Counted from the stretch's first letter, positions 299-40,320 are shown. The stretch is DNA of 64,000 nucleotides from Candidatus Nomurabacteria bacterium (GCA_023898585.1 CP060229.1:726587-790586), one strand, 5' to 3'. The notes: a model not told the origin generated them from the sequence alone. Numbers and translations are program-made.

Positions 299-2989
299 TT
301 ATGTCAGTTGTTTATGTTTGTCCACTGTTTTGACGATAAATCTGTTTGTAAAATACTTTGCGCCCTCCACGAGAGAAACATTCACAAGTATCCAGAGTAA
401 AATGAACCCGATCCAAATCGGCGAAAGTGGCAGAACTTCAAAGGTCGTCCTAAGAAATGGTACGGTAAAGGTTGCGATCATTAGTAATACTCCAATACCG
501 ACTCCGGTCAAGAGTAGCTTGTTGTCAGTTAATGAATAACTGAAAAGCGGACGGCTTAAGTCTAAAAAAGAGAACGAAATGAACAATGTATATGATCCAA
601 AGCTTGCAAACAAGATGCTTCTTGCTAACTCGACTGCTACTCCGTTTTTAAGTAGAGTTAAATATAGGATCAAAAGTAAAAAAGAAACCACCAGACCTAC
701 AAAAATAGTCAAGAAAAGTACTCTTCGGTCAAAGAATTTCTTGGCAGTGGTTTCCGATTCTCGCATTTTTTGTCTGTCGAAAGCAAAAGCAATGGCCGGT
801 AAACTTCCGGTAAACAGATTTACCCATATAATCTGGACGGCTGTAAGTGGTAGGGCTACTCCGTATATTATAGCTCCGCTAATTAAAATAATCTCGTCCA
901 GAGAGTCGGACATAAGATAAACAAACATTTTCTTAATATTACTGAGTATTTGTTTACCTTCCTCTATGGTTGAGACTATCGTCTTAAAGTTATCGTCAAG
1001 CAATATTAAATCAGCTACACTCTTCGCTACATCACTACCTGAGCCTACGGCGATACCTATATTGGCGGCCTTGAGAGAAGGGGAGTCGTTCACTCCGTCT
1101 CCGGTCATGGCTACAATCTCGCCCTTGGCTTGGTGTAGTTTGGTGATCCGAAGCTTGTCAGACGGAGTCACTCGAGCGTATATGTGAATACGGTCAAGTA
1201 TAGCGTTTAAATCGTCGTCAGAGAGCTGTTGCAGTTGTTGTCCTGTCAACACATTCGTCTCGTCTACATCCCAACCAATTTCCTTGGCAATAGCCAAAGC
1301 AGTCCCGGGTAAATCACCTGTGGCCATAATCACTCTCGTGCCATAAGCATTAATTTTCCTCAGCGCCTCTGGTACTTCCGGACGAATTGGGTCGTGGAAA
1401 CTTAGTACTCCTAGAAATGAAATATCCTTCACATGGTCTATGGTGATTGAAGGTTCGTCGGTGTGTGGAGTAAGGAGAGCTATTCCGAGCACGCGTCGGC
1501 CAGAGTGACTGTGTTCAGCGATTGCTTTCTGCACTTTTTGGTAAGAATCATGGTCTATGTATGAACGGTTAAGGAGTATGTCTGGTGCTCCCATCACGAT
1601 ATGGGGATCTTCAAATTGACTTAGGTGTTTAGGTAAATACTGAGTCGGGATTCTGGTTACGGAAAATTTATGTTTTGAACTGAAGGGTATTCGCACCTGT
1701 ATTTCTGAACGGTCGGCGTCGTTTTGAATCACTTGCAGAGATCCGGCGGCGCGAACAATATTTGTTTCTAGGTCTGAACCGCTCATTACCCACGATTCGT
1801 AGTCATCTTCTGGATTCTCGATCGTTACATCACAGGCACAACGTGCCAAAGTCAGGATATCGGTCTGTTCTTGGTTGAAATTGTCATGATGATCGGCTGG
1901 TGTAAAGTCGAAAGCAGTGAGTTGAGAAATAGTATCGATATCGATTAGTTTCATGTCCGCCTGAGTCAGAGTGCCAGTTTTATCGGTAATGATAAGTGTT
2001 GTTGAACCGAGTGTTTCGGCGGCTGTGAGGCTACGCATTATGCCTTTCTTCTTGGCTATCCTTTCCACCCCGATAGCCAAAATAGCCGTGAGGCCGATAG
2101 GCAAAGCTTCCGGCACGGAACCTACTAGTACTGCGATCGAAATTAAAAGCATTTCATAAATCGGCTGATTTTGAGATATTCCTGCCATAAAAATAGCCAA
2201 AACCGCAATAGTGGTGACCACAATTATTACCCAGGTTAATTGACCAAGTGCCTTTTGTAACGGGGTTTGTTCTGACTTCACTTCATCGACCAGACGAGCC
2301 AACTTACCTATTTCAGTGTTATATCCGGTTGCTGTCACTGTGGCGTAGACAGAGCCGTTGATTCCGAGAGTGCCGGCATAAATCATATTGTTTCTCTCTG
2401 GCAAAGGAGCTGTTTCAGACAGTGGCTCTATAGCTTTTTCAACTGACAATGATTCTCCCGTCAAAATTGACTCGTCGGCTGTAAAGTCAATTTCTTTAAC
2501 GACACGCGCGTCAGCAGTTATGCGCGCCCCGTTTATAATATGAATAATATCTCCCGGTACTAAAAATCTTGGATCTATTTCAAATTCGTGTCCATCCCGT
2601 ATTACTCTTGTCCGGTATGTTATGTAAGAACGTAAATCAGCGATGGCTTTTTCCGCTTTAAACTCCTGAACGAAGCCCAAGATAGCATTCACTATTACCG
2701 CAAAAGCAATAATTGAAGTGTCTAGCCATTCTTGCAATGAAGCTGTTATGACAACCGCCACGCAAAGTATGATAATAAGCGGACTGGTGAATTGTCCGAG
2801 AAAAATTTCCAAGGAGGTTTTTTCCTTACCGGACTCAAAAACATTTTCACCATGCAGACCAATTCGTTTTTTGGCTTCCTCAGCGCTAAGACCTTTGGAT
2901 GGATTTGTCTGTAGTAGGTTTTCTATATCTGTTGTTGTGTCCGCCCACGGACTATGAGGTAAGGTAATCATGTGTTTTAAGTGTACCAA
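299..2989 (-). CDS. cation-transporting P-type ATPase (type II, Ca2+/Mg2+-like)
   Basis: 896 aa. DKTGTLT phosphorylation motif, TGDGVNDSPSLKAANIGIAVG hinge, MATGD, 10 TM segments, PEALP TM4 motif. Confidence 0.9.
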   Translation of the reverse strand: MVHLKHMITLPHSPWADTTTDIENLLQTNPSKGLSAEEAKKRIGLHGENVFESGKEKTSLEIFLGQFTSPLIIILCVAVVITASLQEWLDTSIIAFAVIVNAILGFVQEFKAEKAIADLRSYITYRTRVIRDGHEFEIDPRFLVPGDIIHIINGARITADARVVKEIDFTADESILTGESLSVEKAIEPLSETAPLPERNNMIYAGTLGINGSVYATVTATGYNTEIGKLARLVDEVKSEQTPLQKALGQLTWVIIVVTTIAVLAIFMAGISQNQPIYEMLLISIAVLVGSVPEALPIGLTAILAIGVERIAKKKGIMRSLTAAETLGSTTLIITDKTGTLTQADMKLIDIDTISQLTAFDFTPADHHDNFNQEQTDILTLARCACDVTIENPEDDYESWVMSGSDLETNIVRAAGSLQVIQNDADRSEIQVRIPFSSKHKFSVTRIPTQYLPKHLSQFEDPHIVMGAPDILLNRSYIDHDSYQKVQKAIAEHSHSGRRVLGIALLTPHTDEPSITIDHVKDISFLGVLSFHDPIRPEVPEALRKINAYGTRVIMATGDLPGTALAIAKEIGWDVDETNVLTGQQLQQLSDDDLNAILDRIHIYARVTPSDKLRITKLHQAKGEIVAMTGDGVNDSPSLKAANIGIAVGSGSDVAKSVADLILLDDNFKTIVSTIEEGKQILSNIKKMFVYLMSDSLDEIILISGAIIYGVALPLTAVQIIWVNLFTGSLPAIAFAFDRQKMRESETTAKKFFDRRVLFLTIFVGLVVSFLLLILYLTLLKNGVAVELARSILFASFGSYTLFISFSFLDLSRPLFSYSLTDNKLLLTGVGIGVLLMIATFTVPFLRTTFEVLPLSPIWIGFILLWILVNVSLVEGAKYFTNRFIVKTVDKHKQLT

Positions 2990-3044
2990 ATCTTTAGTTG
3001 TCTAGAGTGAGTCGCTGTGGGTGAATATGTTAAACTTCTGACAT

Positions 3045-3725
3045 ATGAAAAATCCTTGGGTAATCATTTGTCTCATAACCATAATCTTGTTTGGGGGTGC
3101 CTTTTGGTACTCAAAAGTTGTCGATAATAAAAACAACGAAGGTGTGGAGATTGTTCAAAACATCAAAGGTAATGTCGAAGCAAGGGTTCGTCTGGTTGAG
3201 TACAGTGATTTCCAGTGCCCCTCATGCGCCAGTTTCCAGCCGATCATGGACCAGATTTTTGAGGAGTTCAGTAATGATGTGAATCTCGAATACAAACATT
3301 TTCCGCTCTATATTCATCAATACGCAAGACAAGCTTCCGTAGCGGCGGAGGCGGCCGGTCAACAAGGTAAGTTTTTTGAATTTCACGATATGTTGTTTGA
3401 GAGACAAGTCGAATGGTCTTCCGCAAGGACTCCTGACACTCTCTTTGTACAGTACGCCAGTGAATTGGAGTTAGACATACCCAAATTTAAACGTCACATG
3501 AAATCATCCGTATTGAGAGACAAAGTCAACACTGAATTTGAAGAGGGTAGACAGGCGGGAGTAACTGGCACGCCAACCCTTTTCCTTAATGGTGAAATTA
3601 TGAAGTACGATTCATACCAATCACTTATTGAACAAGTCGCGTTCGCGGTCAATCCAGAATCCAAAGCGACATCCGGCAGTGAAGAAACTAAGACTGGAGT
3701 ATCAGATGTAAAATTCGGATTATAG
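3045..3725 (+). CDS. DsbA-family thiol:disulfide oxidoreductase, membrane anchored
   Basis: N-terminal TM helix followed by a thioredoxin fold with CPSC active site (FQCPSCASF). Confidence 0.8.
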   Translation: MKNPWVIICLITIILFGGAFWYSKVVDNKNNEGVEIVQNIKGNVEARVRLVEYSDFQCPSCASFQPIMDQIFEEFSNDVNLEYKHFPLYIHQYARQASVAAEAAGQQGKFFEFHDMLFERQVEWSSARTPDTLFVQYASELELDIPKFKRHMKSSVLRDKVNTEFEEGRQAGVTGTPTLFLNGEIMKYDSYQSLIEQVAFAVNPESKATSGSEETKTGVSDVKFGL

Positions 3726-3801
3726 GAGCGATTTATATCCCGAATGGTATCTAGACATATATCTTTTGGCTAAAATGTTGTAGTATTTTGTTCGTTTATA
3801 T

Positions 3802-5073
3802 ATGAAATCAAAGCAAGTTTTCGATGAAAATCTTTTCCAAGCGCTTTGCAAAATAAGCCCCTATATTGACGAAGCGGAATGGTTGAAAGATCATATTAGA
3901 ATTCGTCACGAGGAGAGAGAAAAATTTTTAAACAACGAAATCGAAAACCCCCACTTTACTTATAGTCCCCAAAAGTCCAAAGTTGATTATTTGAAATTGA
4001 TCGAAGAGTTCAATCAGTGTTTAAAAGACTCCGATGTGCCGGCGGTGGTAGTAGATCTGTACCAAAGGAAACTCGAAAAGCAACTACATCGAAATGCACT
4101 GATCGAAGCTTCGCTTGCTGGCGATGACCACGTTTTCTTTGAAAGGAGTTCTGATATTTACGGTCGACCACAGAAAAAGTATTTTTCTTATGTTGCTAAA
4201 CGGTTACTTACCTTGTGTAACGAACAAAAAAGTAAATACCCGGTTATTTCCCGCCGTTTGCGTAAAGTTGTGTCAAAAATCAACCAAAACGGCATTGATA
4301 TTGACGTCAGCATGTTACCGCCTTTAGTGACAAATGGTAGGCTGATTCGATCGGTGGATGAGGTTAGGAGTATATTTATAGAAACGTTGAGTCGGTGTGG
4401 TATTGAGGGTTGGATTGTCAGTGTCGATAAGGCAGGAACCAGAGGACGTTTCTCGGTTAGTCCGCAAAGTAAGACAATTCACATACCTTGTGAGTCAGAA
4501 TTGTTGTCTAGACCTCAGTCTCTTACCGATCATGGTGTCCAAGCGTTGGCTGAACACGAAGTCGGAGTTCACGTCAGACGTTCGTATGAGGCTTCAAAAG
4601 GACCTCTAAGGTTGCTCGAAATTGGTCTTGATAATTATCTTCCCGGTGAAGAGGGGTTGGCCAGTTATGCGCAACAACAGGTTGAAGGAGCCGATGAATT
4701 CTATGGGTTTGACAGGTATCTGGCGGCCAGCTTGGCGGTCGGTATGGATGGCGAGGTGAGAGATTTCCGTTCCGTTTTCAGTTTAATGTCAGATTATTAC
4801 ACTTTGAAATTCGCGCTCGAAGATAAGACAGTCTCAATTCCTTTTCAGGCAGCGTGGGATATTTGTGTGCGCATTTTCAGGGGAACTACCGGGCAAACCC
4901 CAGGTTGTATTTTTACGAAGGATATCGTGTACATGAAAGGTAATATCGGCATATGGAATTTGCTTTCCGAAAGACCAAAAGTCTTTGAGTCGCTATTTAT
5001 TGGCAAATATAACCCTTTACTTTCCCGACATGTAAAGACTTTACAAACGCTTGATATTCTGGAAGAGTGGTAG
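3802..5073 (+). CDS. DUF1704 / flavohemoglobin-expression-modulating QEGLA-motif protein (MATCAP-like HExxH metallopeptidase fold)
   Basis: HEVGVH (HExxH) motif, and a PGEEGLASYAQQ block that corresponds to the family's QEGLA signature. Its 3' end overlaps the next gene by 7 bp. Confidence 0.7.
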   Translation: MKSKQVFDENLFQALCKISPYIDEAEWLKDHIRIRHEEREKFLNNEIENPHFTYSPQKSKVDYLKLIEEFNQCLKDSDVPAVVVDLYQRKLEKQLHRNALIEASLAGDDHVFFERSSDIYGRPQKKYFSYVAKRLLTLCNEQKSKYPVISRRLRKVVSKINQNGIDIDVSMLPPLVTNGRLIRSVDEVRSIFIETLSRCGIEGWIVSVDKAGTRGRFSVSPQSKTIHIPCESELLSRPQSLTDHGVQALAEHEVGVHVRRSYEASKGPLRLLEIGLDNYLPGEEGLASYAQQQVEGADEFYGFDRYLAASLAVGMDGEVRDFRSVFSLMSDYYTLKFALEDKTVSIPFQAAWDICVRIFRGTTGQTPGCIFTKDIVYMKGNIGIWNLLSERPKVFESLFIGKYNPLLSRHVKTLQTLDILEEW

Positions 5074-6038
5074 TCATGAAAATAATATCTTCAAAATTAT
5101 TTGCACCCGCGCTGTTTTGTTGCCTTTTGTTTTTACCGTTTATATCTTTTGCTCAATCAGAAACTGAAACATTTGGCTTTAGAGATGATCTAACCGAAGT
5201 CAAAGAAAGTACCTCTACCGCAACATCGACCATAATCGAAGAGGGTACAGCATCCGCGACCGCTGCAAATATCATTGGTCAACAGGCGATTTCTTCCAAA
5301 GGCAACGACTTGACTCGTCCCGAGGAGTTACCTGAAAAGGTGGCTATCATTACGTTGTTTGAAGATCGTCCTGTTAATGAACTGAGCTTTATCAACGCTA
5401 TGGCTTTTTGGGTTCAAGAATCAGTTCGTGACGGTATTCCGGCCAACACGATTTTCCTCATCCTCTTGACACCTTTTTTGGCCTTATTCGTGAGTTTTGT
5501 TAGGGTGGTGGTCGGTTTACCAACACTTGATATGCTGGTCCCGATCGCTTTATCTTTCGCTTTGGTTGCCGTCGGTGTGACGGTTGGTCTATTGGTCTTG
5601 GGGGCGATTTTGGTTGCTTCATATATATCCAAGAAGATACTGTCCCACTTGCGTATCATGTTTTACCCTAAGCGTTCTCTTTCCATAGTGTTGCTTGCCA
5701 TTTCAGTTTTTGCCGCTTTGTCAATCGGTGTTGCTTTTGAATTTGAAAAAATTCTCAGCGTGTCGATTTTCCCAATCTTGGTTTTGTTGTTGTTGGGTGA
5801 CATGATTGTTTCCGTTCAATTACACAAAAGCCCAACAGAGACTTTGATGATTACTGGTACGACAATATTTATCGGTTTGATAGGCTACATGGTGGCGACC
5901 AGTGACGCTATCCAAAACACCATAATCCTTTACCCAGAACTAGTGTTACTTGTCATCCCGGCTAATCTCTTGATTGGTAGGTACTTTGGATTGCGCGTAT
6001 TTGAGGTGTTTAGGTTTAGTAAAGTCAGTAAAGGTTAA
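5067..6038 (+). CDS. 7-TM membrane protein (third component of the ATP-grasp/QEGLA cluster)
   Basis: Signal peptide, a ~100-aa Thr/Ser-rich ectodomain, then 7 predicted TM helices. Its position between the DUF1704 and ATP-grasp genes matches the known conserved trio. Confidence 0.55.
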   Translation: MVVMKIISSKLFAPALFCCLLFLPFISFAQSETETFGFRDDLTEVKESTSTATSTIIEEGTASATAANIIGQQAISSKGNDLTRPEELPEKVAIITLFEDRPVNELSFINAMAFWVQESVRDGIPANTIFLILLTPFLALFVSFVRVVVGLPTLDMLVPIALSFALVAVGVTVGLLVLGAILVASYISKKILSHLRIMFYPKRSLSIVLLAISVFAALSIGVAFEFEKILSVSIFPILVLLLLGDMIVSVQLHKSPTETLMITGTTIFIGLIGYMVATSDAIQNTIILYPELVLLVIPANLLIGRYFGLRVFEVFRFSKVSKG

Positions 6039-6063
6039 TTGTCCACTAAATTAAATTTTATTT

Positions 6064-7356
6064 ATGCCAGTAAGTAATTCACTGTTGGGGATGAACGCCC
6101 GAAATTTCTTATACATAAGAAAATTCAATTCCAAAAAACAAAAGATGGTGGCAGACGATAAAATGTTAACCAAGAAACGTCTTATAAATGCCGGTGTACC
6201 TACAAACTCCTTTTTGGCAAAATTCACAGATTATCAGGAAGTGCGTGAATTTGACTGGGGTTCCTTACCTTCTGATTTTGCTATCAAACCATCTCATGGG
6301 TATGGTGGGCGAGGTATTTTTGTGGTAAGGAAATGGGACGGCAAGGCCGGAGTGATAGGAAAGGGAGCAAAAGTCGATATTCTAGAACTCGAAAGAGTGA
6401 TTTTTGGCACATTGGATGGTGAACATTCGTTAAACAACTTACCTGACGCGGCCTTTATCGAAGAAAGAATCAGACCACACACTTTTTTTAAGAAGTATTC
6501 TGCCAAAGGAGTAGCGGACATACGTTTAATCGTTTGCAATATGGTGCCGGTCATGGCTATGTTGCGTCTACCGACTATTTATTCAGATGGTAAGGCCAAT
6601 TTACATCTCGGAGCTTTGGGGGTGGGAATAGACATAAGAACCGGTATCACCACTTCAGCGGTGGTGCATAATCAACCGGTCTATTACATACCAGGTACTA
6701 AAATTAAAGTCCATGGAATCAGGATTCCCGATTGGGATAAAATACTGGAGATATCCGTGCGGGCACAGCAATGTTCAAGATTGGGTTTTGCTGGAATAGA
6801 TATAGTTCTCGATGATAAACAAGGGCCATTAGTGCTTGAAGTCAACGCTCGTCCTGGTTTGGGTATTCAGGTTGCTAACCAAGCTTCTCTTCGCACAAGA
6901 CTGGAAAGAATTGGAGATTTAAATGTACAAACTGTAACCAGGGGAGTTGAATTGGCAAAAAAATTATTCGCCGATGAGACGCTTGAGGATGTCAGTGAAC
7001 AAAAATCCGCCTTGCTTGGAGTGATAGAAAAAATTGTCATCTATGGCAACGAAAACAAAAAGACAGTCCGGGCTAAAGTAGACACTGGTGCTTATCGTAC
7101 CTCGATTGACAGCGATTTAGTAGAAGAGCTTGGGCTTGATCCGCATAGTAAAACTGTTCATGTGCGGTCGGGAAGTGGCAGGCAAAAACGTCGAACCGTA
7201 AAACTCAAGTTTAAAATGAAAGGCAAGGAAATAAATACGGTTGCTACTTATACTCCGCGAGGACACCTTCGCTTTCCGGTGATTATTGGACGTAAAGACA
7301 TGGAAGGTTTTTTGGTCGACCCTGCCGATATACCGGAGGGTGTTTTGGTGAAATAA
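6064..7356 (+). CDS. RimK-like ATP-grasp alpha-L-glutamate ligase-related protein fused to a C-terminal retropepsin-like (DUF785/Zn_protease-type) aspartyl peptidase domain
   Basis: ATP-grasp blocks (GYGGRGIFVV, LEVNARPGLG). The C-terminal ~105 aa contain KVDTGAYRTSIDSDL, the DTG aspartyl-protease signature (nt 7081-7089). Confidence 0.8.
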   Translation: MPVSNSLLGMNARNFLYIRKFNSKKQKMVADDKMLTKKRLINAGVPTNSFLAKFTDYQEVREFDWGSLPSDFAIKPSHGYGGRGIFVVRKWDGKAGVIGKGAKVDILELERVIFGTLDGEHSLNNLPDAAFIEERIRPHTFFKKYSAKGVADIRLIVCNMVPVMAMLRLPTIYSDGKANLHLGALGVGIDIRTGITTSAVVHNQPVYYIPGTKIKVHGIRIPDWDKILEISVRAQQCSRLGFAGIDIVLDDKQGPLVLEVNARPGLGIQVANQASLRTRLERIGDLNVQTVTRGVELAKKLFADETLEDVSEQKSALLGVIEKIVIYGNENKKTVRAKVDTGAYRTSIDSDLVEELGLDPHSKTVHVRSGSGRQKRRTVKLKFKMKGKEINTVATYTPRGHLRFPVIIGRKDMEGFLVDPADIPEGVLVK

Positions 7357-7487
7357 GAATTTTGTTGAATCCCACATACTCGACAGAGACAATAATTCCC
7401 GCTTAAAGGTACTACAGTCGTCCAGTTATTAAGGTTCCACCTTATTTAGCTATTGGGGTGATACCGGGCCTTTGGTATGATTAGGAG

Positions 7488-8279
7488 ATGTTTAGAACGC
7501 GTGATTTTGTTCTTGTTTTCACAACAGTACTGTTTTTGTTAATGGCTATTGGCACAACTGTTTTTAAACAAAATTACAACTTAGGAATGGCAGACAAACC
7601 GGAAAACCCGGCTGAGAGAATGAACGAAGAATATAAGGCTGAGGTGTACGTCAAGGAAACTGTTACTCGTGAAGAGCGCTTAATTAGTATGAGGGAACAG
7701 ATTGCTAAAAGTAATAGTGTCACTATTTCTTCTCCGGTTTCGAATCCACCCGAGATTGAAACCCCGGCCCTATCGGAAGAGTCAGAGTCGAAAACCGAAG
7801 CGGAAGTACAGTATTGCCAAGATTATGCCAAATATGCGGGAAGTTGGCCAAATGGTGGGGTTATGCTTGATGTCTCGGAGGGAGCGAGGATAGTTTACAC
7901 GGAAAATTTTTTGGAAAACGAATTTAATTATATCGGCACATCATCGGGTGTGAGTACTACAGAAACGAGGAAAGATGTGATTCTGCAATTACCTGTCTTT
8001 GGTATTAAATCACTAGGCGTATCGTGTTTGAGCAGTGATGTTATCGGTATTGCCAAAGAAGGTTCGTTGATTCGCAACGATGAGGCTAGTTTGTATGGAA
8101 TATTCAATTCCGGTACTTTAGTGGGATATGCTCTTGATGGTTTCCCTATTTACGGAGTGGGTGAAGTTGATGCTGATTCCTGTGGGGGATCGTCTGTCGA
8201 TGGTCAGTACGGTTATTACATCTCAAAGGAAAGAAGTGTCATTTTGAATTGTTTTTCAGCCAAACCGGTCAAAATTTAA
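7488..8279 (+). CDS. hypothetical membrane-anchored extracytoplasmic protein
   Basis: N-terminal TM anchor, Ser/Glu-rich linker, no recognisable motifs. Confidence 0.45.
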   Translation: MFRTRDFVLVFTTVLFLLMAIGTTVFKQNYNLGMADKPENPAERMNEEYKAEVYVKETVTREERLISMREQIAKSNSVTISSPVSNPPEIETPALSEESESKTEAEVQYCQDYAKYAGSWPNGGVMLDVSEGARIVYTENFLENEFNYIGTSSGVSTTETRKDVILQLPVFGIKSLGVSCLSSDVIGIAKEGSLIRNDEASLYGIFNSGTLVGYALDGFPIYGVGEVDADSCGGSSVDGQYGYYISKERSVILNCFSAKPVKI

Positions 8280-8282
8280 TTT

Positions 8283-9008
8283 ATGTCGACTCTGATTTTG
8301 GATATCGAGACAATTGGTCAAGAGTGGGATTCTTTGCCAGAAACCAGTAAAGAAAGTTTGACCAAGTGGATTGATAAAAGTGGAGACGAAAAGGAAGAGA
8401 AGGACAGGAAGCGTGACGATGTTAAAGAGCGTCTCAGCCTGTCACCCTTTACCGGCCTAATCGTCTCTGTGGCGATGTACGATGTTGAGCGAGATTTGGG
8501 CGCTGTATATTTTACGTCTGATTTGCCAGATGAATCATTCAAATCTAATTCATTTACTTTTAAACAAAGGACTGAAAAAGAAATACTCGAAGATTTTTGG
8601 GAGGGAGCAATCGGGTACGATACTTTTGTGACTTTTAATGGGCGGGCTTTTGCTCTGCCTTTTTTGATGCACCGTTCGGTCATAAACGAAATAAAACCAT
8701 CAGTCGAAATAGCTCACCAACGATATCTAACCAAGCAATCAGCACCTTTCCATGTCGACGTGTTGGACGAAATGACTTTCTACGGAGCGGTACAAAAAAG
8801 ACCTTCTCTACAATTGTTGTGTAATAGTTACGGGACCGTCTATCATCAGGAATTGGGAGGTAGTTACATCTCCGAACTTTTTAAAATGAAAAAATTCCGG
8901 CACATTGCGGAACATAATGCCATGGATGTTCTTGCTATAAAAGACTTGTATTTGAAATGGAAGGAATATATGGCCCCGCTCGCCTTTATAAATAAACTTG
9001 AAATGTAG
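8283..9008 (+). CDS. RNase H-like / DEDD-type 3'-5' exonuclease-like protein (COG3359/YprB-like)
   Basis: LILDIETIG (Exo I, D-x-E), FNGRAFALPFL (Exo II-like block), HNAMDVLAIKDLY (Exo III-like). Confidence 0.55.
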   Translation: MSTLILDIETIGQEWDSLPETSKESLTKWIDKSGDEKEEKDRKRDDVKERLSLSPFTGLIVSVAMYDVERDLGAVYFTSDLPDESFKSNSFTFKQRTEKEILEDFWEGAIGYDTFVTFNGRAFALPFLMHRSVINEIKPSVEIAHQRYLTKQSAPFHVDVLDEMTFYGAVQKRPSLQLLCNSYGTVYHQELGGSYISELFKMKKFRHIAEHNAMDVLAIKDLYLKWKEYMAPLAFINKLEM

Positions 9009-10225: not shown

Positions 10226-11458
10226 ATGAATAAACAGACGTATAAATTCCCAGACGGTTTTTTTTGGGGAGCCGGCAGTTCCAGTTATCAAGTGGAAGGA
10301 GGGATCGAAAATAACGATTGGGCCAAAGCTTCCCAAGAAGGTAGAGTGCCTCCGTGTGGACGAGCGTGTGATCATTATAATCGTTACGAAGAAGACTTCG
10401 ATATCGCAAGATCACTTAGCCACAACGCCCACCGCTTTTCGATAGAGTGGTCACGAATTGAACCCGAAGAGGGCAAATTTAGTCAGGAGGCGGTTGAGCA
10501 TTATCGTCGTGTTCTACAGGCGTTAAAAGCGCGGGGAATCGAACCATACATAACCATTTGGCATTTCTGGATGCCTCTTTGGTTTAGTGAAAGTGGTGGT
10601 TTTAAGCGGAAAGACTCATCACAGATATTCGCTCGATATGCTCGGTATGTCGTCGAGCAACTAGGAGATTTGGCCACTAAGTTTTCTACGATTAATGAAC
10701 CTTACAGTGTCGTTGTAAATGGTTATGTGCGTGGAAATTGGCCACCGTTTTATGAAGTACCACTGATGTCGTTTGTCGATCTTCCAAATGGTAACGCAAC
10801 TAAGCAAGTGCCAAAACGTAGTTGGCGGGGGTTGTTTGACTTTTTTACCGTGGCCAATAAGTTGGCAGACGCTCACAACGAAGCGTACGACGCGATAAAG
10901 GGAGTAAGACCGGAAGTTGATGTCAGTATTGTGTTTCAGGTATTTATTTGGGAAGCAAATAATAATCCTATTAACAAGCTTTTAGCAAAATTGCAAACTT
11001 GGAACATGACCACTCGCTTTATGAACAAAGTGGCTAATCGTTGTGATTCGATTGGTGTGAATCATTATTTTTATCGTCGACTCGGTGGCTCTCCGAAGAG
11101 ACAGGTATCAGATACTGGCTGGGAGTTGTATCCGGAAAAAATTTATAATTCTCTCAAGATACTTAGCAGATATAAAAAACCAATGTACGTAGCCGAAGTC
11201 GGTGTAGCTGACGCGGACGATAAGTATCGGTCTGAATACATCAAGAATGCATTACTGGGAGTTCATCGGGCTATAAAAGAGGGGATTAACGTAAAAGGTT
11301 TTTTATATTGGTCGCTTCTTGATAATTATGAATTGGCACTCGGGTATGACAAGCGGTTTGGTTTGGTTGAAGTGAATTACGACACGCTGGAAAGAAAAAT
11401 CAGACCCTCGGCCTACGTGTATAAAAAAATCATTGAAGACAACGGCATAGTAGAATAG
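10226..11458 (+). CDS. glycoside hydrolase family 1 (beta-glucosidase-like)
   Basis: N-terminal FPDGFFWGAGSSSYQVEGG GH1 signature. TINEP (acid/base Glu) and VAEVG in place of ITENG (nucleophile Glu). Confidence 0.85.
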   Translation: MNKQTYKFPDGFFWGAGSSSYQVEGGIENNDWAKASQEGRVPPCGRACDHYNRYEEDFDIARSLSHNAHRFSIEWSRIEPEEGKFSQEAVEHYRRVLQALKARGIEPYITIWHFWMPLWFSESGGFKRKDSSQIFARYARYVVEQLGDLATKFSTINEPYSVVVNGYVRGNWPPFYEVPLMSFVDLPNGNATKQVPKRSWRGLFDFFTVANKLADAHNEAYDAIKGVRPEVDVSIVFQVFIWEANNNPINKLLAKLQTWNMTTRFMNKVANRCDSIGVNHYFYRRLGGSPKRQVSDTGWELYPEKIYNSLKILSRYKKPMYVAEVGVADADDKYRSEYIKNALLGVHRAIKEGINVKGFLYWSLLDNYELALGYDKRFGLVEVNYDTLERKIRPSAYVYKKIIEDNGIVE

Positions 11459-11470
11459 AAACGTGGTTAA

Positions 11471-12433
11471 TTGTGCATTAACATGACATGGATTCTGTTG
11501 GCAACCGCAGGGCAGTTTCTGAACGCTCTGGTAGCTATTTTCGATAAATACATTGTTTCGGATGAAAAAGTTTTACCGCGTCCTTTTGTGTACGCTTTTT
11601 ATTCTTGTTTATTGACGGGTGGATGGATTGTGATTTTTTTTCTGGGCTGGATTCCTGGGTTGTCGGATTTCGGCTTTCCTTCTCTTGAAAACGTAAAGTC
11701 TCCTTCTTTGCAAGTGGTGGCGATGTCATTCCTTTCGGCCTATACTTTCTTCATCGCTCTAGTGTCCATGTTTGACGCTCTTAAGAGAGCCGACGCGTCA
11801 AATACTATGCCGATCATCGGTTCGGTGTCAGCACTGTCCGCTTTTGGAATGAGCTACTTGTTTTTAGGAGAAGAATTGACCGATAACTTCGCTGTCGGTG
11901 TGGTTTTGTTGGCTGTCGGTACAATGCTGGTAGCACAAACTCTGCCGAAGATTAATGTTGTGATACAGGTTCTGCACAGCGGTCTCTTTTTTGCTCTCCA
12001 TTACATAACGATGAAAGGTCTTTTCAATACCAATGGTTTTGACGACGGTTTTTTTTGGTCCAGAATCGGTTTTGTGGTTTTTGTTCTCTCACTTTTATTG
12101 GTCCCGGTTTATTTTGATAAGGTAAAGACAGAAACAAAAAAGGTTACTAAGAAAGTAGGCGCTATAGTATTGATGGTGAAAATTGTCGCTGGAGTAGCTT
12201 CGTTTATGCTACTGAAAGCGACTGACCTTGGTGATCCGTCGGTAGTGCAAGCACTTGGTGGCCTGCAATACATATTCATCCTTATCATCAGTATTTCATT
12301 TGCCGAATGGCTTCCTGCCTCTGTTGCCGACAGCGATACAAGACCAAGCACTTTCTTTAGACGCCTACTTTTTGTCGTGGTCATATTGGTTGGTTTCATG
12401 ATGCTTTTTGTTGATTCGATTAAATTTGTTTAG
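11471..12433 (+). CDS. polytopic membrane protein (about 10 TM; DMT/EamA-like permease possible)
   Basis: Hydrophobicity pattern only. Lies between two glycoside hydrolases. Confidence 0.4.
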   Translation: MCINMTWILLATAGQFLNALVAIFDKYIVSDEKVLPRPFVYAFYSCLLTGGWIVIFFLGWIPGLSDFGFPSLENVKSPSLQVVAMSFLSAYTFFIALVSMFDALKRADASNTMPIIGSVSALSAFGMSYLFLGEELTDNFAVGVVLLAVGTMLVAQTLPKINVVIQVLHSGLFFALHYITMKGLFNTNGFDDGFFWSRIGFVVFVLSLLLVPVYFDKVKTETKKVTKKVGAIVLMVKIVAGVASFMLLKATDLGDPSVVQALGGLQYIFILIISISFAEWLPASVADSDTRPSTFFRRLLFVVVILVGFMMLFVDSIKFV

Positions 12434-12437
12434 GGAC

Positions 12438-13442
12438 ATGAAAAAGAGAATTTTGTACAGTTTGGTAGGTTTGGTTCTGGTCTTTCTGTTTCTGCTTTGG
12501 TTGCTGGCACAAAAGCCGGTTCCAGAACAAATCACCTACGGAATGTCTTTTAACACAATGTACGCCAGAGAACTTGGTTTGGACTGGAAAGAAACCTACG
12601 ACGCGATAATTGATGATTTGCAGGTTCGCCATTTACGTTTATCGGCACACTGGCCGATGATTGAACCGATTGTCAATGTTTACAATTTTGAAGAACTTGA
12701 TTACCAAATAGAACGTGCTGAAGAGGTTGGTGCGAAAGTTATACTGGCAGTCGGGAGGAGATTGCCCCGCTGGCCCGAATGTCACGTGCCGGATTGGACC
12801 CGCGGTCTTTCTCTGAAGGAAAGACAAGTAGCTCAGATTCGTTACATGACAGAGGTTGTAAATCGTTACAAAGACAATAAAGCCGTAATCATGTGGCAAG
12901 TGGAAAATGAACCGTTCTTGAAAGCCTTTGCTTTTGAGCATTGTGGGGAGTTGGATGTCGCTTTTCTTGAAAAAGAAATCTCCTTGGTTAAAGAACTTGA
13001 CCCCGGAAGACAGATACTGATTACTGACAGCGGAAATCTCGGTACGTGGAAAGGAGCGTACAGTCGTGGTGATATTTTTGGAACCAGTGTTTACGTGCAC
13101 TTTTGGAATCCTGAACTGGGGCAATTCAGAACAGTTTTGCCGGCCTGGGCTTACCGAGTTAAAGACAATCTAATGCAGTCATTCTATGAGCAAAAAAACA
13201 GTATTTTGATCGAACTATCCGCTGAACCATGGTTGTTGGAGCCTGTTAACAATGTCTCGTTAGAGACACAATTTACCAGAATGAATCTTGAGAAGTTCGA
13301 AGATATATTGGAATACGCCAAGGAAACTCGGTTTGATACCCAGTATTTATGGGGAGGTGAATGGTGGTATTGGCTTCATCTTCAGGGTCATTCGGAAATG
13401 TGGGAGAGAGGTCGGCGTTTATTCGTGAAAGAGAGTGAATAA
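12438..13442 (+). CDS. membrane-anchored glycoside hydrolase, clan GH-A (GH5-like)
   Basis: N-terminal TM. WQVENEP (NEP acid/base motif) and a TIM-barrel-like pattern. ATG at 12438 chosen over the track's 12408, which overlaps the upstream gene. Confidence 0.6.
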   Translation: MKKRILYSLVGLVLVFLFLLWLLAQKPVPEQITYGMSFNTMYARELGLDWKETYDAIIDDLQVRHLRLSAHWPMIEPIVNVYNFEELDYQIERAEEVGAKVILAVGRRLPRWPECHVPDWTRGLSLKERQVAQIRYMTEVVNRYKDNKAVIMWQVENEPFLKAFAFEHCGELDVAFLEKEISLVKELDPGRQILITDSGNLGTWKGAYSRGDIFGTSVYVHFWNPELGQFRTVLPAWAYRVKDNLMQSFYEQKNSILIELSAEPWLLEPVNNVSLETQFTRMNLEKFEDILEYAKETRFDTQYLWGGEWWYWLHLQGHSEMWERGRRLFVKESE

Positions 13443-13463: not shown

Positions 13464-14660
13464 ATGGAATCAGCCAAAACAGCGAAAATAGCACTTTTAA
13501 GTAGTCTCATCACTATTTTTATCGTAATCAATGCAGTTTTTTTATTTCGTCATGATTTGATTTCTTTCTTAAAAACTGAAATTTCCGTTCCTTCGGCTAC
13601 CAAAGAAGCACCAAAAACTGTTTCAAGTGAAGAACTGATCGTATCGACTATTGAAAAAGTTAACCCGGCTGTCGTTTCAGTGGTTGTTACAAAAGACGTT
13701 CCTGTTTATGAACGTTATTACGAATCGTACGATAGAGGTTTTTTCGGAAGTTTTAATATACCTAAGGTAAGAGAAAACGGGACCGAAGAGAGGGAGGTGG
13801 GAGGAGGGTCCGGATTCATAGTTAGTAGTGATGGTATGATTGTTACCAATCGACACGTGGTTGATGACGAAGAGGCTCATTACACGATTCTACTAAACGA
13901 TGGGACAATCTATAATGTCGAAGTTTTAGCTCGCGATCCACAGCTTGATATAGCGATATTGAAGATAACCGAACCACTGGAAAAAGCGCTGACTTTTGTG
14001 ACCTTTGGTGATTCTGAAACATTGAAACTGGGAGAGACAGCCATTGCTATCGGAAACGCATTGGCCGAATTCAGAAACTCTGTGTCGGTTGGTGTCGTGT
14101 CTGGACTATCACGCTCTATTGTGGCTAGAGACAGTCTCGGGAGGAGTGAACAATTGGACCAAGTTATTCAAACTGACGCAGCTATCAATCCGGGTAATTC
14201 CGGTGGTCCACTTTTGAATATAAACGGAGAAGTCATCGGGGTGAATGTAGCAACTTCACGTGGTGCCGACAATATCGGTTTTGCATTACCTGCTCACGTA
14301 ATTAAAGGTGTTGTTGAATCGGTCAGAGAATACGGAGAAATAGTTCGTCCTTTCCTAGGTGTCAGGTATGCCATGATAACCGAACAGATGTCCAAGAAAA
14401 ATAATTTGGAAGTGAACTACGGAGCTTTGGTTGTTCGTGGAGAAACAGTCGAAGAGTTAGCTGTTATGCCCGGTTCTCCAGCCGATAAGGCGGGTATTAC
14501 TGAAAATAACATAATTCTTTCCATTGACGGGGTAGATTTGCGAGAGCTGGACTTAGCTACGGTACTAAGAAGTAAAAAAGTCGGACAGGAAGTCAAGTTG
14601 GAAATCCTGCAAGCGGGTGAGAGGAAAACGCTCCCAGTCACGCTAGACAAAGCGCTATAA
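13464..14660 (+). CDS. HtrA/DegP-family serine protease with C-terminal PDZ domain
   Basis: Catalytic triad context HVV (His), D, and GNSGGPLLN (Ser). N-terminal TM and a C-terminal PDZ-like segment. Confidence 0.9.
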   Translation: MESAKTAKIALLSSLITIFIVINAVFLFRHDLISFLKTEISVPSATKEAPKTVSSEELIVSTIEKVNPAVVSVVVTKDVPVYERYYESYDRGFFGSFNIPKVRENGTEEREVGGGSGFIVSSDGMIVTNRHVVDDEEAHYTILLNDGTIYNVEVLARDPQLDIAILKITEPLEKALTFVTFGDSETLKLGETAIAIGNALAEFRNSVSVGVVSGLSRSIVARDSLGRSEQLDQVIQTDAAINPGNSGGPLLNINGEVIGVNVATSRGADNIGFALPAHVIKGVVESVREYGEIVRPFLGVRYAMITEQMSKKNNLEVNYGALVVRGETVEELAVMPGSPADKAGITENNIILSIDGVDLRELDLATVLRSKKVGQEVKLEILQAGERKTLPVTLDKAL

Positions 14661-15637: not shown

Positions 15638-16429
15638 ATGACCGTGTTCGCTCGTTTTCGTGCCTTACCCGACAAAGATAAAGCTTCTTTAATCAGGAAG
15701 CTTGTTGAAAATGGCACACCCGATTTCGATTATTTTTATCTGATCGGGCTTTCGACACTGATGGCGACATTGGGATTGCTTCTTGATAGTGGTTCGATAG
15801 TCATCGGTAGTATGTTGATTGCGCCACTTATGTACCCCGTGCTTGGAGTATCTCTTGGTCTTGTAATGATGGGCGATAACACTTCCTTACTGCAACGTGC
15901 TTTGAACACCTTGACCAAGTCACTAGCAATCGGTCTTGGCCTTTCCATAATAGCGGCACTTCTTTTTGGTAATGGCGATGAAGGTTTCTATCAAACAGCC
16001 GAGGTGATGTCACGTACAACACCCAACCACCTTCATTTATTGGTAGCCATCGTCGCCGGCGCCGCGGTTGCATACATGTTAGCTCGTCCTGAGTGGGGGG
16101 ATGCTCTCCCTGGAGTTGCGATTGCGGTCGCTTTAGTTCCTCCGCTCGCTACTGTTGGGGTAGGGATCGCGGCAGCTGATGTTGCGGTTATTTCTGGCGC
16201 AACTATGATTCTATTACTAAACTTGTTTGGTATAATAGCCGTTGCGGTTTTTGTTTTCCTCTTAATGAATTTGTCAGAGCAGGAAAATGTTGCTGAATCA
16301 ACTGTTAAGCGTGAAGATAAAAAGATTGAATCGGAAAACAAAGTCATTGCCGAAGTGGCGGAAAAAATTACGGTGAGTAAAGAGAAGAATAAAAAGATTG
16401 TTATCAGAGAAGATATAAAAACAGAATAA
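15638..16429 (+). CDS. DUF389-family membrane protein
   Basis: LIGLSTLMATLGLL...MLIAPLMYPVLG block typical of the DUF389/TIGR00341 hydrophobic domain, 6 TM. Confidence 0.55.
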   Translation: MTVFARFRALPDKDKASLIRKLVENGTPDFDYFYLIGLSTLMATLGLLLDSGSIVIGSMLIAPLMYPVLGVSLGLVMMGDNTSLLQRALNTLTKSLAIGLGLSIIAALLFGNGDEGFYQTAEVMSRTTPNHLHLLVAIVAGAAVAYMLARPEWGDALPGVAIAVALVPPLATVGVGIAAADVAVISGATMILLLNLFGIIAVAVFVFLLMNLSEQENVAESTVKREDKKIESENKVIAEVAEKITVSKEKNKKIVIREDIKTE

Positions 16430-17556
16430 TGACTTCTATTATTGCACGTAAATTCATCCCTATATCGTTATTAGCAATCGTGTTTGCTCTTAGTACTTCT
16501 TATACTGAAGCAAAAACGGTTGTCCGGTCAGGCAACACAGTTTCTATTGCTGAAGAGCAAAGTGTTGAGGGAGATTTTTACACAGCAGCAAATATTATCA
16601 ATATATCAGGTCAGGTTTCCGAGGATTTAGTTGCCGCCGGCGGACAGATAACTATAAACGGACCGGTTAACGAAGACGTGTTCCTGATTTCTGGGAGGAC
16701 GGATGTCCACGGCTCTGTTGGAGATGATTTAAGAATTATATCCGGTGAAGTGACAATCGCCGAGCCGGTAGCCGGCGATGTTTTTGTGATTGCTGGTGTT
16801 GTCAATATTCTTTCCACAGCTACTGTCTCTGGAGACGTTGTCTTATACGCCGGTCAAGCGACGATAGAAGGTTCAGTGGAAGGAAATGTTATCGGGTCCG
16901 TAGAACTGCTGAGAGTAGACGGAATGGTCGGTGGTGATGTTGATGTAAAAGTAACAGATTTTACTCTGGGCGACAGGGCGGAGATAACCGGATCTGTTCG
17001 CTATGTCAGTAACAACTTGGTGGTCCAATCATTGGACGCTAATATTTCCGGCGAATTGGTCAGAAACGACCCTGTAGCGGAAACAGTCGAGGTTGATCTT
17101 CGGGTAGCTTTAGTGCCGGCATTATCCTTGCTTTTTTCAGTTTTGGTTTGGTACTTAGTGTCTCGAAGAACATTAAATTCAATTGTTGGTCGTGCTCTTG
17201 TGAAAAGTCCACGTCCGATTTTGCTTGGTTTTGCAACTCTATTTTTTACGCCACTCGCATCCGGTATTCTTATAGCCAGTATGATTGGGGCGCCGGTTGG
17301 TTTAGTTACTTTTGTGGGTTATGTGCTTCTTCTTTTACTCAGTTTGATTGCTGTACCTTCCGTATTAGGGCACTTGTTAATGAAGGCGTTTAATCAGCCC
17401 AATGCTAAATTATCTCTCATAACCCTGGTTGTTGGAGTGGTGGGTGTTGTACTATTAATGCTACTAACATTTATCGGACAATTGATTCTCGTTGGTGTCA
17501 TGATTCTCTCTTTAGGAGCAATGGTCGATTTGCTTGTGAGGCCGTCTCTGGATTAA
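16429..17556 (+). CDS. membrane protein with bactofilin-like beta-helical repeats (polymer-forming cytoskeletal-like) and C-terminal TM bundle
   Basis: Signal/TM, then ~10 degenerate ~18-aa repeats of the form G-x-V-x-GDV-x-x-x-G-x-V-x-I. Four C-terminal TM helices. Confidence 0.45.
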   Translation: MTSIIARKFIPISLLAIVFALSTSYTEAKTVVRSGNTVSIAEEQSVEGDFYTAANIINISGQVSEDLVAAGGQITINGPVNEDVFLISGRTDVHGSVGDDLRIISGEVTIAEPVAGDVFVIAGVVNILSTATVSGDVVLYAGQATIEGSVEGNVIGSVELLRVDGMVGGDVDVKVTDFTLGDRAEITGSVRYVSNNLVVQSLDANISGELVRNDPVAETVEVDLRVALVPALSLLFSVLVWYLVSRRTLNSIVGRALVKSPRPILLGFATLFFTPLASGILIASMIGAPVGLVTFVGYVLLLLLSLIAVPSVLGHLLMKAFNQPNAKLSLITLVVGVVGVVLLMLLTFIGQLILVGVMILSLGAMVDLLVRPSLD

Positions 17557-33069: not shown

Positions 33070-34191
33070 ATGCTGAAGTTAATTAAATGGGCGGTATTTT
33101 TACTCATCATCCTTATCGTGGTTGGTAGTATTAACGATAGTAAAGATGATCCGATTTCCAATCAAGCTGAAGTGACAGTATCTGAGATAATTGTTAATGG
33201 GGAAGACGTTACCACCGGCCTGGCAGATCCCTCTATTGAGTATGGAGCTGATTCGACCGGGTGGATGGCATATTCTCATATGAATACGATTAAAAATCAT
33301 TTGTATGTTGAGACTCATTTGGCGCGGAGTGACAACAGTGGAGATACTTGGGAGTATGTCACGGATCTTAATGAGACAAAGAATGATGAGGCAAAGCAGG
33401 GTATCTGGAAAAATGAAACGTCAAGCTTGGTGTTTGATCCCGGCGACATCCCTTCTCGTCAGTGGAAAATTTTTTATGCCACCTGGTTTTTACCGTATGA
33501 AAAAGTCAATGGAAATCTGACGTTCGAGCACAGTTCAGTTAGGTATAAAACAGCTGGTTCGCCGGATGGAGTGTGGTCGGAGGAAGTGTGTTTGTTTGGT
33601 AACAAAGATGAGGGTTGTCAGCAAGAATTTTCTGAACTCGACCCTAGTCTTGAGAATATGGTCTTGATGAATGAGCTTGGGAGTATCGCTGTGAAAGGAA
33701 CCCTTTACATGAGTGCGGATGTGAGCCCGTCAAACACCGGGCTTGGAACTATTGACGAGATTAAGGCACGTAAGATAGTCCTTTTGTCATCAAAAGATCA
33801 CGGTATCACATGGAGGTTCGTAAATACACTGACTGATTTCGATGACGCGTCATCTCTCAACTATTTCGTCTTTACCGCGTCAAGTCTGGTTGAAAAAGAT
33901 GGCGTGCAGTTTCTTATGTTTACACCTTCCGGCGCCATGAACAAGAAAGACAAAAACCACGATGGTGTGTATGTTGTTGAATTTGAAGATATAAGCAAAG
34001 GTTTGTTAAAGAGGGACAAAGGAGGTAAACCACTTTTCTCTGAAATTCTGGGTGAGTTTATCGAGAATGGTGGATTGGCTGATTATCACGAGAAGAATAC
34101 CGCGGGTGGTGTAGTCGGTTCAAATTTTTACGTAGAAGGATTGTTTAAATTGAAGTCTCGATTATTTAGTACGCAAAAAGGTATAGATTAG
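33070..34191 (+). CDS. BNR/Asp-box repeat protein (sialidase-like beta-propeller), membrane anchored
   Basis: SDNSGDTW and SKDHGITW Asp-box motifs. N-terminal TM. Confidence 0.55.
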   Translation: MLKLIKWAVFLLIILIVVGSINDSKDDPISNQAEVTVSEIIVNGEDVTTGLADPSIEYGADSTGWMAYSHMNTIKNHLYVETHLARSDNSGDTWEYVTDLNETKNDEAKQGIWKNETSSLVFDPGDIPSRQWKIFYATWFLPYEKVNGNLTFEHSSVRYKTAGSPDGVWSEEVCLFGNKDEGCQQEFSELDPSLENMVLMNELGSIAVKGTLYMSADVSPSNTGLGTIDEIKARKIVLLSSKDHGITWRFVNTLTDFDDASSLNYFVFTASSLVEKDGVQFLMFTPSGAMNKKDKNHDGVYVVEFEDISKGLLKRDKGGKPLFSEILGEFIENGGLADYHEKNTAGGVVGSNFYVEGLFKLKSRLFSTQKGID

Positions 34192-40113: not shown

Positions 40114-40320
40114 GAAATCGGTTGTTACCTGTAAAATATTAGCGAAATTGTACCATATTTGAAGATGTGTAAAAAAGTAACGATGTTTATTAAACAACAT
40201 TTCTTTAATTATGAATTCGAGATGACTTTTCGAATGGTGTGTTTCTGTTGCATACCGATTTTGTAGTGTAAAAGAGCCGGTCACATCCTGTACCGGCCCT
40301 GTTTATAAAAATCTCTCAAA

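Follow-up and report, generated by a model that had tools for sequence, protein, structure and literature searches.

A MATCAP-like metallopeptidase gene grouped with genes for a seven-transmembrane protein and an ATP-grasp ligase-retropepsin fusion in Patescibacteria

We analysed a 64,000-nucleotide stretch of a Candidatus Nomurabacteria genome (GCA_023898585.1 CP060229.1:726587-790586; hereafter the window), in which three closely packed genes on the (+) strand, from position 3,802 to 7,356, encode a metallopeptidase of the MATCAP/DUF1704 family (gene 1), a seven-transmembrane (7TM) protein (gene 2) and an ATP-grasp ligase fused to a retropepsin-type aspartic protease (gene 3). The host is an ultra-small bacterium of the Candidate Phyla Radiation (CPR), or Patescibacteria. 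We judge the chances to be somewhat better than even that this trio is a membrane-docked add-and-trim module, a Patescibacteria variant of the Rlo/Rim type, in which the ligase builds acidic chains, probably of poly-alpha-glutamate, that are trimmed by an endo- and an exo-peptidase. The domain identities, intact active sites, conserved gene order, domain fusions and predicted topology that lead us to this reading are direct observations, and we describe them below.

Domains and active sites of the three proteins

Because each of the three genes has more than 100 homologues, at 40-84% identity, we consider all of them real, in agreement with an initial annotation that had placed three same-strand genes at these positions. 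The open reading frames (ORFs) encode 423 (gene 1), 323 (gene 2, 5067..6038, with a GTG start) and 430 amino acids (gene 3, 6064..7356). A 7-bp overlap of genes 1 and 2 (5067-5073), also part of that annotation, holds only with the GTG start at 5067, which gene callers pick on related contigs; the NCBI entry for the source genome, 100% identical, begins at ATG 5076, which gives a protein of 320 amino acids whose start codon is separated by 2 bp from the gene 1 stop codon (5071-5073; junction GAG TGG TAG TC ATG). Genes 1 and 2 are tightly coupled and translationally close with either start. Gene 3 follows gene 2 after 25 bp, the gaps flanking the trio measure 76 and 131 bp, and the GC content of the trio (0.40-0.44) is the same as that of its flanks. 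We judged operon limits by gene spacing only: a promoter and terminator scan of 2900-8400 returned 11 promoter-like sites against 11.1 expected from shuffled sequence, which is the level of chance, and an Rfam scan of the same interval detected no RNA element.

Gene 1 matches PF08014 (MATCAP/DUF1704) with an E-value of 1.7e-22 and 80.4 bits (gathering cut-off 27). In an alignment of 24 homologues (39-68% identity), the motif residues H252, E253, H257, G282, E283, E284, G285 and A287 are invariant, as are several arginines. The profile of this alignment matches human MATCAP (7z5g/7z6s) at 8e-6 through three collinear blocks that include HEIGxH and EEGLAS, and a Foldseek search of the PDB with an AlphaFold (AF2) model of gene 1 (pLDDT 92.3, pTM 0.90) returns MATCAP chains (7z6s/7z5g) as its top four matches (E 1e-5, probability 1.0, TM 0.52-0.58 normalised to target length), followed by M32 carboxypeptidases. 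Identity between gene 1 and MATCAP is only 15-18%. The relationship to MATCAP proposed in the initial annotation is thus confirmed by hidden Markov model (HMM), profile and structure-model comparisons. Its assignment to the DUF1704/QEGLA family is correct at the level of the Pfam family, which gene 1 shares with the TIGR02421 QEGLA protein, and the HEVGVH motif is intact; gene 1 is, however, no equivalog of the gammaproteobacterial QEGLA protein, as its TIGR02421 score of 86.5 bits lies far below the cut-off of 338.65 and its motif is EEGLA, not QEGLA. A profile search of 1.84 billion cluster representatives found 2783 relatives of gene 1 at E <= 1e-3 and 438 at E <= 1e-30; gene 1 belongs to a separate CPR clade, which comprises 438 50%-identity clusters at the latter threshold. 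No signal peptide or transmembrane segment is evident from hydropathy (maximum KD19 1.01). Together, these features suggest a cytoplasmic, metal-dependent carboxypeptidase predicted to act on acidic C-terminal tails. The last residue of gene 1 is itself conserved: 102 of 120 homologues end in Trp, often as ...(K/E)EW, and the window copy ends in LEEW (5059-5070). This end recalls the ...EEY end of alpha-tubulin that MATCAP trims; the Trp tail could be autoinhibitory, or merely structural.

The N-terminal part of gene 3 matches PF14397 (ATPgrasp_ST) over residues 13-284 at 1.7e-62, and TIGR02291 is by far its best NCBIfam match (254.3 bits, E 1.3e-75, equivalog cut-off 314.2). On the RimK model TIGR00768 it reaches 49.6 bits against a cut-off of 143.4; a Pfam scan found no Rimk_N domain, a PF08443 (RimK) match limited to residues 228-267, and a TTL match of 19.9 bits, below the cut-off. 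The nearest solved relatives of the ligase domain are RimK structures (5zct/4iwx, 3e-5), and EVNARPGL of gene 3 aligns with EVNASPGL of RimK. The hallmarks of ATP-grasp enzymes are complete, with the ATP-binding Lys, the Gly-rich loop and the Mg-binding D...E-x-N triad, and K75, the G79-G84 loop, E133, D152/R154, N179, D246, E259/N261 and R263 are invariant in 20 homologues. Because these catalytic residues are kept, the ligase looks active. The initial annotation had called gene 3 a RimK-type ATP-grasp ligase, which is accurate as to superfamily and catalytic set; by its sequence matches the protein is RloC-like and not RimK proper, and its second domain had been overlooked.

That second, C-terminal domain matches PF13650 (2.3e-9), PF13975 (6.8e-8), PF05618/RimB-like (8e-6) and RloA3 (8e-8). 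Its DTGA motif at residues 340-343 (nt 7081-7092) is invariant in the 20 homologues, as are K338, R345, R399, R403, G409, R410 and D412, and the domain aligns with the DTGA region of PDB 9g59. K338 stands two residues ahead of the catalytic D340, a spacing equal to that of K46 and D48 in RloA, and the domain is basic (pI 9.8). Gene 3 therefore carries the hallmarks of rlo-type retropepsins, namely the catalytic DTGA and basic residues of the substrate channel type (K338, R345, R399, R403, R410). More than 100 database proteins share the 429-430-aa ligase-retropepsin fusion. Hydropathy indicates no signal peptide, so that the protease is predicted to be cytoplasmic and not secreted. The trio thus appears to carry two erasers, gene 1 and the gene 3 retropepsin.

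Gene 2 matches PF14402 (7TM_transglut) at 1.1e-21, and the NCBIfam RloB model aligns with it only over model positions 313-505 of 508, which is the 7TM part (44.5 bits against a cut-off of 900). Its N-terminus is signal-peptide-like and is followed, in hydropathy plots, by seven hydrophobic segments. The ectodomain consists of a signal peptide and a linker, together about 95 residues, without a transglutaminase domain; the linker is variable and rich in Thr, Ser and Ala (32% T+S), and a short conserved ecto-segment comes after it. The description of gene 2 as a 7TM protein with a Thr/Ser-rich ectodomain therefore holds. Because a signal peptide is combined with seven transmembrane segments, the predicted topology is N-out/C-in, which would place the C-terminal helix in the cytosol. 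Within gene 2, R143, D152, K199, R200, D242, Q248, H250, K251, E255, E288 and N297 are invariant in 28 CPR homologues, and G120, P133, G147, P156, P198, F232, P233, Q248, T263, P287 and E288 are kept in Peribacteria and Gammaproteobacteria as well. Conservation extends beyond TM7 into the tail, where the motif G(R/K)(Y/F)xGLRxxExxRF is found from CPR to Peribacteria and Gammaproteobacteria and G301, G305, L306, R307, E310, R313 and F314 are invariant from CPR to Gammaproteobacteria.

Table 1. Features of the trio in the window and of fusion proteins at related loci (L, loci of the comparison)
Feature	Position	Strand	Basis
Gene 1, MATCAP/DUF1704-family gluzincin metallopeptidase, predicted exo-acting carboxypeptidase ("eraser")	3802..5073	+	PF08014, profile, AF2/Foldseek
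HEVGVH, HExxxH metal-binding/catalytic motif (H252, E253, H257; residues 252-257)	4555..4572	+	Invariant in 24 homologues; aligns with MATCAP HEIGTH
GEEGLA (residues 282-287), predicted third metal ligand Glu	4645..4662	+	Aligns with MATCAP TEEGLAS
Gene 2, RloB-type 7TM protein, signal peptide, Thr/Ser/Ala-rich linker	5076..6038 (ATG; GTG 5067)	+	PF14402, RloB model, hydropathy
Gene 2, 7TM core, residues 120-301	5433..5978	+	Alignments; invariant polar/charged residues within helices
Gene 2, predicted cytosolic C-terminal helix GRYFGLRVFEVFRFSKVSKG, candidate docking site for cytosolic enzymes	5976..6035	+	Alignment, topology
Gene 3, N-terminal domain, RloC-like ATP-grasp amino-acid ligase ("writer"), residues 1-~300	6064..6963	+	PF14397, TIGR02291, invariant residues
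Gene 3, C-terminal RimB/RloA-like retropepsin aspartic protease, residues ~318-430, second "eraser" (predicted endo-acting)	7015..7356	+	PF13650, PF13975, PF05618, RloA3, DTGA
Ligase-MATCAP fusion proteins	L018:5780-8092, L022:5168-7525, L023:3645-6020, L025:5129-7486		ATPgrasp_ST and MATCAP domains

Gene order and ligase-metallopeptidase fusions across genomes

We scanned one genome per species and obtained 25 loci. Genes for MATCAP, 7TM and ligase-retropepsin proteins follow one another in this order in 13 of these and in the window, 14 in total, down to a gene 1 identity of 30%, and the trio is the only gene set kept in all 14. Four additional metagenome loci, including TARA ocean samples, have the same order, which brings the number of CPR loci to 18. 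Among the loci compared, no conserved extra ORF of at least 40 aa lies beside the trio, the extra clusters being antisense shadow ORFs; we therefore rejected a precursor peptide gene as a companion of the trio. Neither a glycosyltransferase gene nor a precursor-peptide gene is conserved next to the trio at these loci.

Further, ligase and metallopeptidase are joined in single proteins of 770-791 aa, each combining ATPgrasp_ST and MATCAP domains, in a metagenome-assembled genome (MAG) of Peribacteria (L018), in two Gammaproteobacteria MAGs (L022, L023) and in another Patescibacterium (L025). In three of these four (L018, L022, L023), a 7TM_transglut gene with a PKD ectodomain precedes the fusion. 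The MATCAP motif of the fusions is intact, as HE(I/V)ETH. Their inter-domain linker aligns with the retropepsin domain, with DTG replaced by DPH or DPT, and is probably inactive as a protease. Because the module is retained in the fusions though probably inactive, it would have a non-catalytic role as well, which fits the ligase-stimulating function of RimB described below. Synteny in 18 loci and the existence of these fusions strongly support the pairing of a writer with an eraser that the initial annotation had put forward. At L023, two more RimK-like ATP-grasp genes (313 and 330 aa; L023:103-2050, (-) strand) lie divergently upstream of the 7TM gene and the fusion.

MATCAP-like genes also occur beside canonical RimK genes. 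In Saccharimonadia they adjoin rimK genes with both Rimk_N and RimK domains; at L014 a RimB-like gene lies next to rimK and near a MATCAP-like gene, and at L019, from a Saccharimonadales MAG, the MATCAP-like gene lies among three RimK-type ligase genes (L019:5663-10382: RimK-like, 302 aa; unknown, 121 aa; MATCAP-like, 391 aa; RimK-like, 309 aa; canonical RimK, 299 aa; DUF192; no 7TM gene). Because it is found beside rimK genes as well as beside the RloC-like ligase, the MATCAP-like peptidase is tied to two glutamate-ligase families. Loci L017, L024 and L014 resemble L019, and L017 has two tandem MATCAP-like genes. Two Gammaproteobacteria MAGs carry standalone MATCAP-like genes (L020:28-1098, L021:1757-2995) within GT4 glycosyltransferase/Wzy-like clusters, with no ATP-grasp gene on the short contigs.

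Known relatives, a possible mechanism and its rivals

The rloABC genes of Pseudomonas aeruginosa encode a secreted retropepsin (RloA), a 7TM protein with an inactive transglutaminase ectodomain (RloB) and an ATP-grasp enzyme (RloC) (Lormand et al., mBio 2025, PMC12239564). RloA cleaves runs of at least 8 Glu, and a triple rloA mutant is hypo-osmotically sensitive, a phenotype suppressed by deletion of rloB or rloC (PMC12239564); these genetics place both the ligase and the 7TM protein upstream of the protease. The trio resembles this system in that a RimB-like retropepsin, an RloC-like ATP-grasp enzyme (closest to TIGR02291, though below its cut-off) and an RloB-type 7TM core are encoded by adjacent genes, and the 7TM core of both has the conserved cytosolic tail. 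By contrast with Pseudomonas, where RloA is a separate protein with a signal peptide and is secreted, the retropepsin of the trio is fused to the C-terminus of the ligase and predicted to be cytoplasmic, and the trio has a MATCAP-like metallopeptidase as an obligatory third gene. The ectodomain of the 7TM partner also varies by lineage: an inactive transglutaminase in RloB (PMC12239564), PKD with an alpha/beta region at L018, L022 and L023, and nearly none in gene 2. Finally, the trio belongs to CPR bacteria, whereas 96% of RloB matches are proteobacterial (PMC12239564).

A second likeness is to RimK/RimB(/RimA), which couples a glutamate ligase of the ATP-grasp type to a retropepsin that both cleaves poly-alpha-Glu and controls the ligase (PMC11957791, PMC7343187). 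RimB, an endopeptidase, requires 5 or more Glu and also stimulates RimK to make poly-alpha-Glu; poly-Glu synthesis drains the pool of glutamate and changes osmolality (Little et al. 2025, PMC11957791). A fusion of ligase and protease is also already known from this system, as a RimB-RimK hybrid with the protease at the N-terminus (PMC11957791); the domain order is reversed in the trio, where the ligase comes first. The trio ligase belongs to another ATP-grasp family, a 7TM partner and a metallocarboxypeptidase are added, and nothing points to ribosomal protein S6, the target of the RimK/RimB module, as a target of the trio.

The third likeness is to the enzymes that modify tubulin tails, where a TTL/TTLL ATP-grasp ligase is complemented by MATCAP/TMCP1-2, HExxxH...EEGLA gluzincins of the same family as gene 1 (PDB 7z5g, 7z6s). 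The animal MATCAP/TMCP enzymes take off Tyr and Glu at the C-terminus and also trim polyglutamate chains to a shorter length (Nicot et al. 2023, PMC10499314). The distance is considerable (15-18% identity and TM ~0.5 for gene 1); the bacterial ligase is of the RimK superfamily and not the TTL family, tubulin is absent, and the two bacterial enzymes share an operon or a single polypeptide and are tied to a membrane protein. Among QEGLA proteins, that of Photobacterium damselae is up 27-fold at low salinity, when RimK is up 52-fold, and its gene adjoins one annotated GshB. Our literature searches by family names found no paper linking MATCAP-like proteins to RimK/ATP-grasp enzymes in bacteria or CPR bacteria to RimK, none reporting such a module from CPR bacteria, and no discussion of a MATCAP-like gene in the rlo or rim papers.

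The trio is thus Rlo/Rim-like in its logic yet lies outside the canonical forms, with no transglutaminase domain, no secreted protease, no Rimk_N domain and scores on TIGR02291, TIGR02421 and TIGR00768 that are all below cut-off. The component families were already annotated and the general logic had been anticipated; the added element is the obligatory MATCAP-like gene. The initial annotation was therefore right in kind, but it missed part of the anatomy and has been overtaken by newer work: its statement that no biochemical function is established applies to this exact trio, but the homologous rloABC (PMC12239564) and RimK/RimB (PMC11957791) systems provide genetics and protease biochemistry.

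In the mechanism that we favour, the gene 3 ligase would use ATP to add amino acids stepwise onto a carboxylate primer, yielding an acidic alpha-linked chain; by homology, L-glutamate is most likely the residue added. The fused retropepsin would dimerise and cut long Glu runs internally, as RimB and RloA do, and may also stimulate the ligase as RimB stimulates RimK. Gene 1 would trim residues from the C-terminal end, acting on chains or stubs too short for the endopeptidase and freeing an amino acid or the primer. Because they are without signal peptides, all three catalytic domains are expected to act on the cytoplasmic side. Gene 2 would be their fixed membrane partner, its conserved cytosolic tail probably docking the enzymes and its polar-residue-rich helices probably moving the product across the membrane or gating its production. 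The physiological role would likely be cell-envelope or osmotic homeostasis, by analogy with rlo genetics. Glutamate as the added residue, the split into endo- and exo-acting erasers, the role of the 7TM protein and this envelope or osmotic physiology are what we infer from the domains, the gene order and the related systems.

Several observations weigh against this mechanism. The likeness of gene 3 to RimK is confined to catalytic C-terminal motifs, so that glutamate specificity is no more than probable, and the Pfam label of PF14397 is "sugar-transfer associated". Nor can the substrate preference of gene 1 be read from its sequence, at 15-18% identity to MATCAP and far under the TIGR02421 cut-off. 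The AF2 model of gene 2 is poor (pLDDT 62, pTM 0.45), and in a Foldseek search against the PDB it had no match below E=2 and no transporter or receptor fold, which leaves a transport role without structural support. When all 252 ORFs of 50 aa or more in the window were screened for acidic C-termini and for D/E runs of at least 5, only a doubtful 72-aa ORF (33100-33318) and no candidate substrate emerged. CPR envelopes differ from diderm envelopes, and both peptidases are cytoplasmic here where RloA is secreted; transfer of the rlo genetic model to the trio may therefore be doubtful. Finally, with ligase and protease in one protein, the cycle of synthesis and cleavage would be futile without regulation, and we identified no regulator.

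The product might instead be the tail of a single protein, with the ligase extending its C-terminus (that of S6, or the cytosolic end of gene 2 itself) and the peptidases shortening it, thereby tuning activity; taken strictly, this is how the initial annotation read the trio. RimK and TTL/TTLL act in this manner, and MATCAP/TMCP enzymes are trimmers of C-terminal tails. The C-terminus of gene 2 homologues might serve as the primer: it directly follows the universally conserved cytosolic helix, of 119 homologues, 68 have D and 21 have E as their last residue (89 together) and 16 more end in ...LEK, and distant homologues end in ...GMEE, ...HQEE, ...HQE and ...YGSE. This bias comes from mutually related homologues, however, and so consists of non-independent observations; gene 2 of the window ends in ...SKG, RimK also makes free poly-Glu, and the window has no acidic-tailed ORF to serve as a substrate. 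We regard such a tail code as unlikely. A bolder extension of it, in which an ancient, physically coupled ligase/MATCAP pair runs a polyglutamate tail code on the 7TM C-terminus, tail length sets activity, and the eukaryotic TTLL/MATCAP tubulin code descends from this pre-assembled prokaryotic module, strikes us as a long shot.

A product other than polyglutamate seems to us improbable to about the same degree as the single-protein tail. Here the ligase would amidate a cell-surface polymer, a small metabolite or a peptide with a different amino acid; the 7TM protein would then flip or export the product, and the peptidases would mature or recycle it. This is the older computational prediction for the Pfam families 7TM_transglut and ATPgrasp_ST, which Iyer et al. 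2009 reportedly defined; according to the Pfam text, 7TM_transglut proteins would process a secreted peptide jointly with an ATP-grasp enzyme and at least one protease. The best Pfam match of gene 3, "Sugar-transfer associated ATP-grasp", the standalone MATCAP-like genes in glycosyltransferase/Wzy clusters of two Gammaproteobacteria MAGs, and the 7TM ectodomains, which are swappable binding-type modules (PKD, inactive transglutaminase, Thr/Ser linker), are all in keeping with it. Against this, assays of related retropepsins have shown specificity for Glu runs, MATCAP-like genes associate with canonical RimK genes too, and no glycosyltransferase or precursor-peptide gene is conserved beside the trio. 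The chain might also stay inside the cell as an osmotic buffer, the 7TM protein sensing tension or osmolarity: polymerising glutamate, the main cytoplasmic anion, would lower osmolarity at low salt, and the peptidases would release Glu on an upshift, with no export. The cytoplasmic location predicted for every catalytic domain, the hypo-osmotic sensitivity of rlo mutants, the induction of the QEGLA protein and RimK at low salinity, and the glutamate depletion and osmolality shift that accompany poly-Glu synthesis (PMC11957791) agree with this possibility, which is nonetheless purely inferential; the essential Pseudomonas proteases are periplasmic, which argues for an exported product, and the trio has no sensor-type output domain. 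We give this buffer only a slim chance. That the three genes are merely unrelated neighbours packed by a small genome is, in our estimation, close to excluded: CPR genomes are gene-dense, DsbA-like, YHYH-like and GH1 neighbours are partly syntenic as well, and the promoter and terminator scan was at chance level, but the trio alone survives in divergent loci and the same domains are fused in other phyla, so that the fusions and the conserved order effectively refute this explanation.

Neighbouring genes and significance

Directly upstream of the trio lies a gene for a membrane-anchored DsbA/thioredoxin-like protein (3045-3725, +; PF13462 1.2e-23, with a partial Rcas_1661-family match), which is found in this place in 8 of the 14 loci; downstream, 7488-8279 (+) encodes a protein anchored by its N-terminus that matches YHYH weakly (1.8e-5), found at 7 of 14. 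Because both are missing from divergent loci, we rejected them as members of the system. The next gene, 8283-9008 (+), encodes a standalone PolB-type 3'-5' exonuclease-like protein (PF10108 1.6e-16); together with the YHYH-like gene it trails the trio in 6-7 related loci, with no evident link to it. A P-type cation-transporting ATPase (E1-E2 ATPase, 896 aa; 299-2989, -) is divergent from the DsbA-like gene and is kept upstream in 5 loci. Further along the window, 10226-11458, 12408-13442, 13464-14660 and 15638-17556 hold a GH1 glycosidase, a GH42/GH5-like hydrolase, an HtrA-type serine protease with PDZ, a DUF389 membrane protein and a weak bactofilin match (8.8e-6); there is a 1203-aa ORF at 36673-40284 (-), and the sole tRNA gene of the window is a tRNA-Ala with anticodon TGC (41130-41205, -). 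We also rejected a defence-system reading of the trio, which finds no support in PADLOC: genes 1 and 2 match none of its known or candidate defence models, and gene 3 has only retropepsin-type matches (E~1e-3).

If the add-and-trim reading of the trio is true, relatives of the tubulin-code eraser MATCAP already partner RimK-type ligases in bacteria, both as operon members and as fused proteins, which would make enzymes that add and trim tails accessible to experiment in a prokaryotic model. The trio would also supply a missing third enzyme for the Rlo pathway, whose effects in Pseudomonas extend to osmotic tolerance, sensitivity to antibiotics and biofilms, and the compact CPR version, with its catalytic domains all predicted to be cytoplasmic and without a transglutaminase domain, could serve as a minimal system in which to search for the product. 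The MATCAP-ligase fusions and the CPR distribution of the trio are relevant to work on Rlo and Rim and to the origins of the tubulin-code enzymes. For the Patescibacteria themselves, this reading would give a plausible role to three genes that are labelled merely DUF1704, hypothetical and "aspartyl protease family" in hundreds of genomes.

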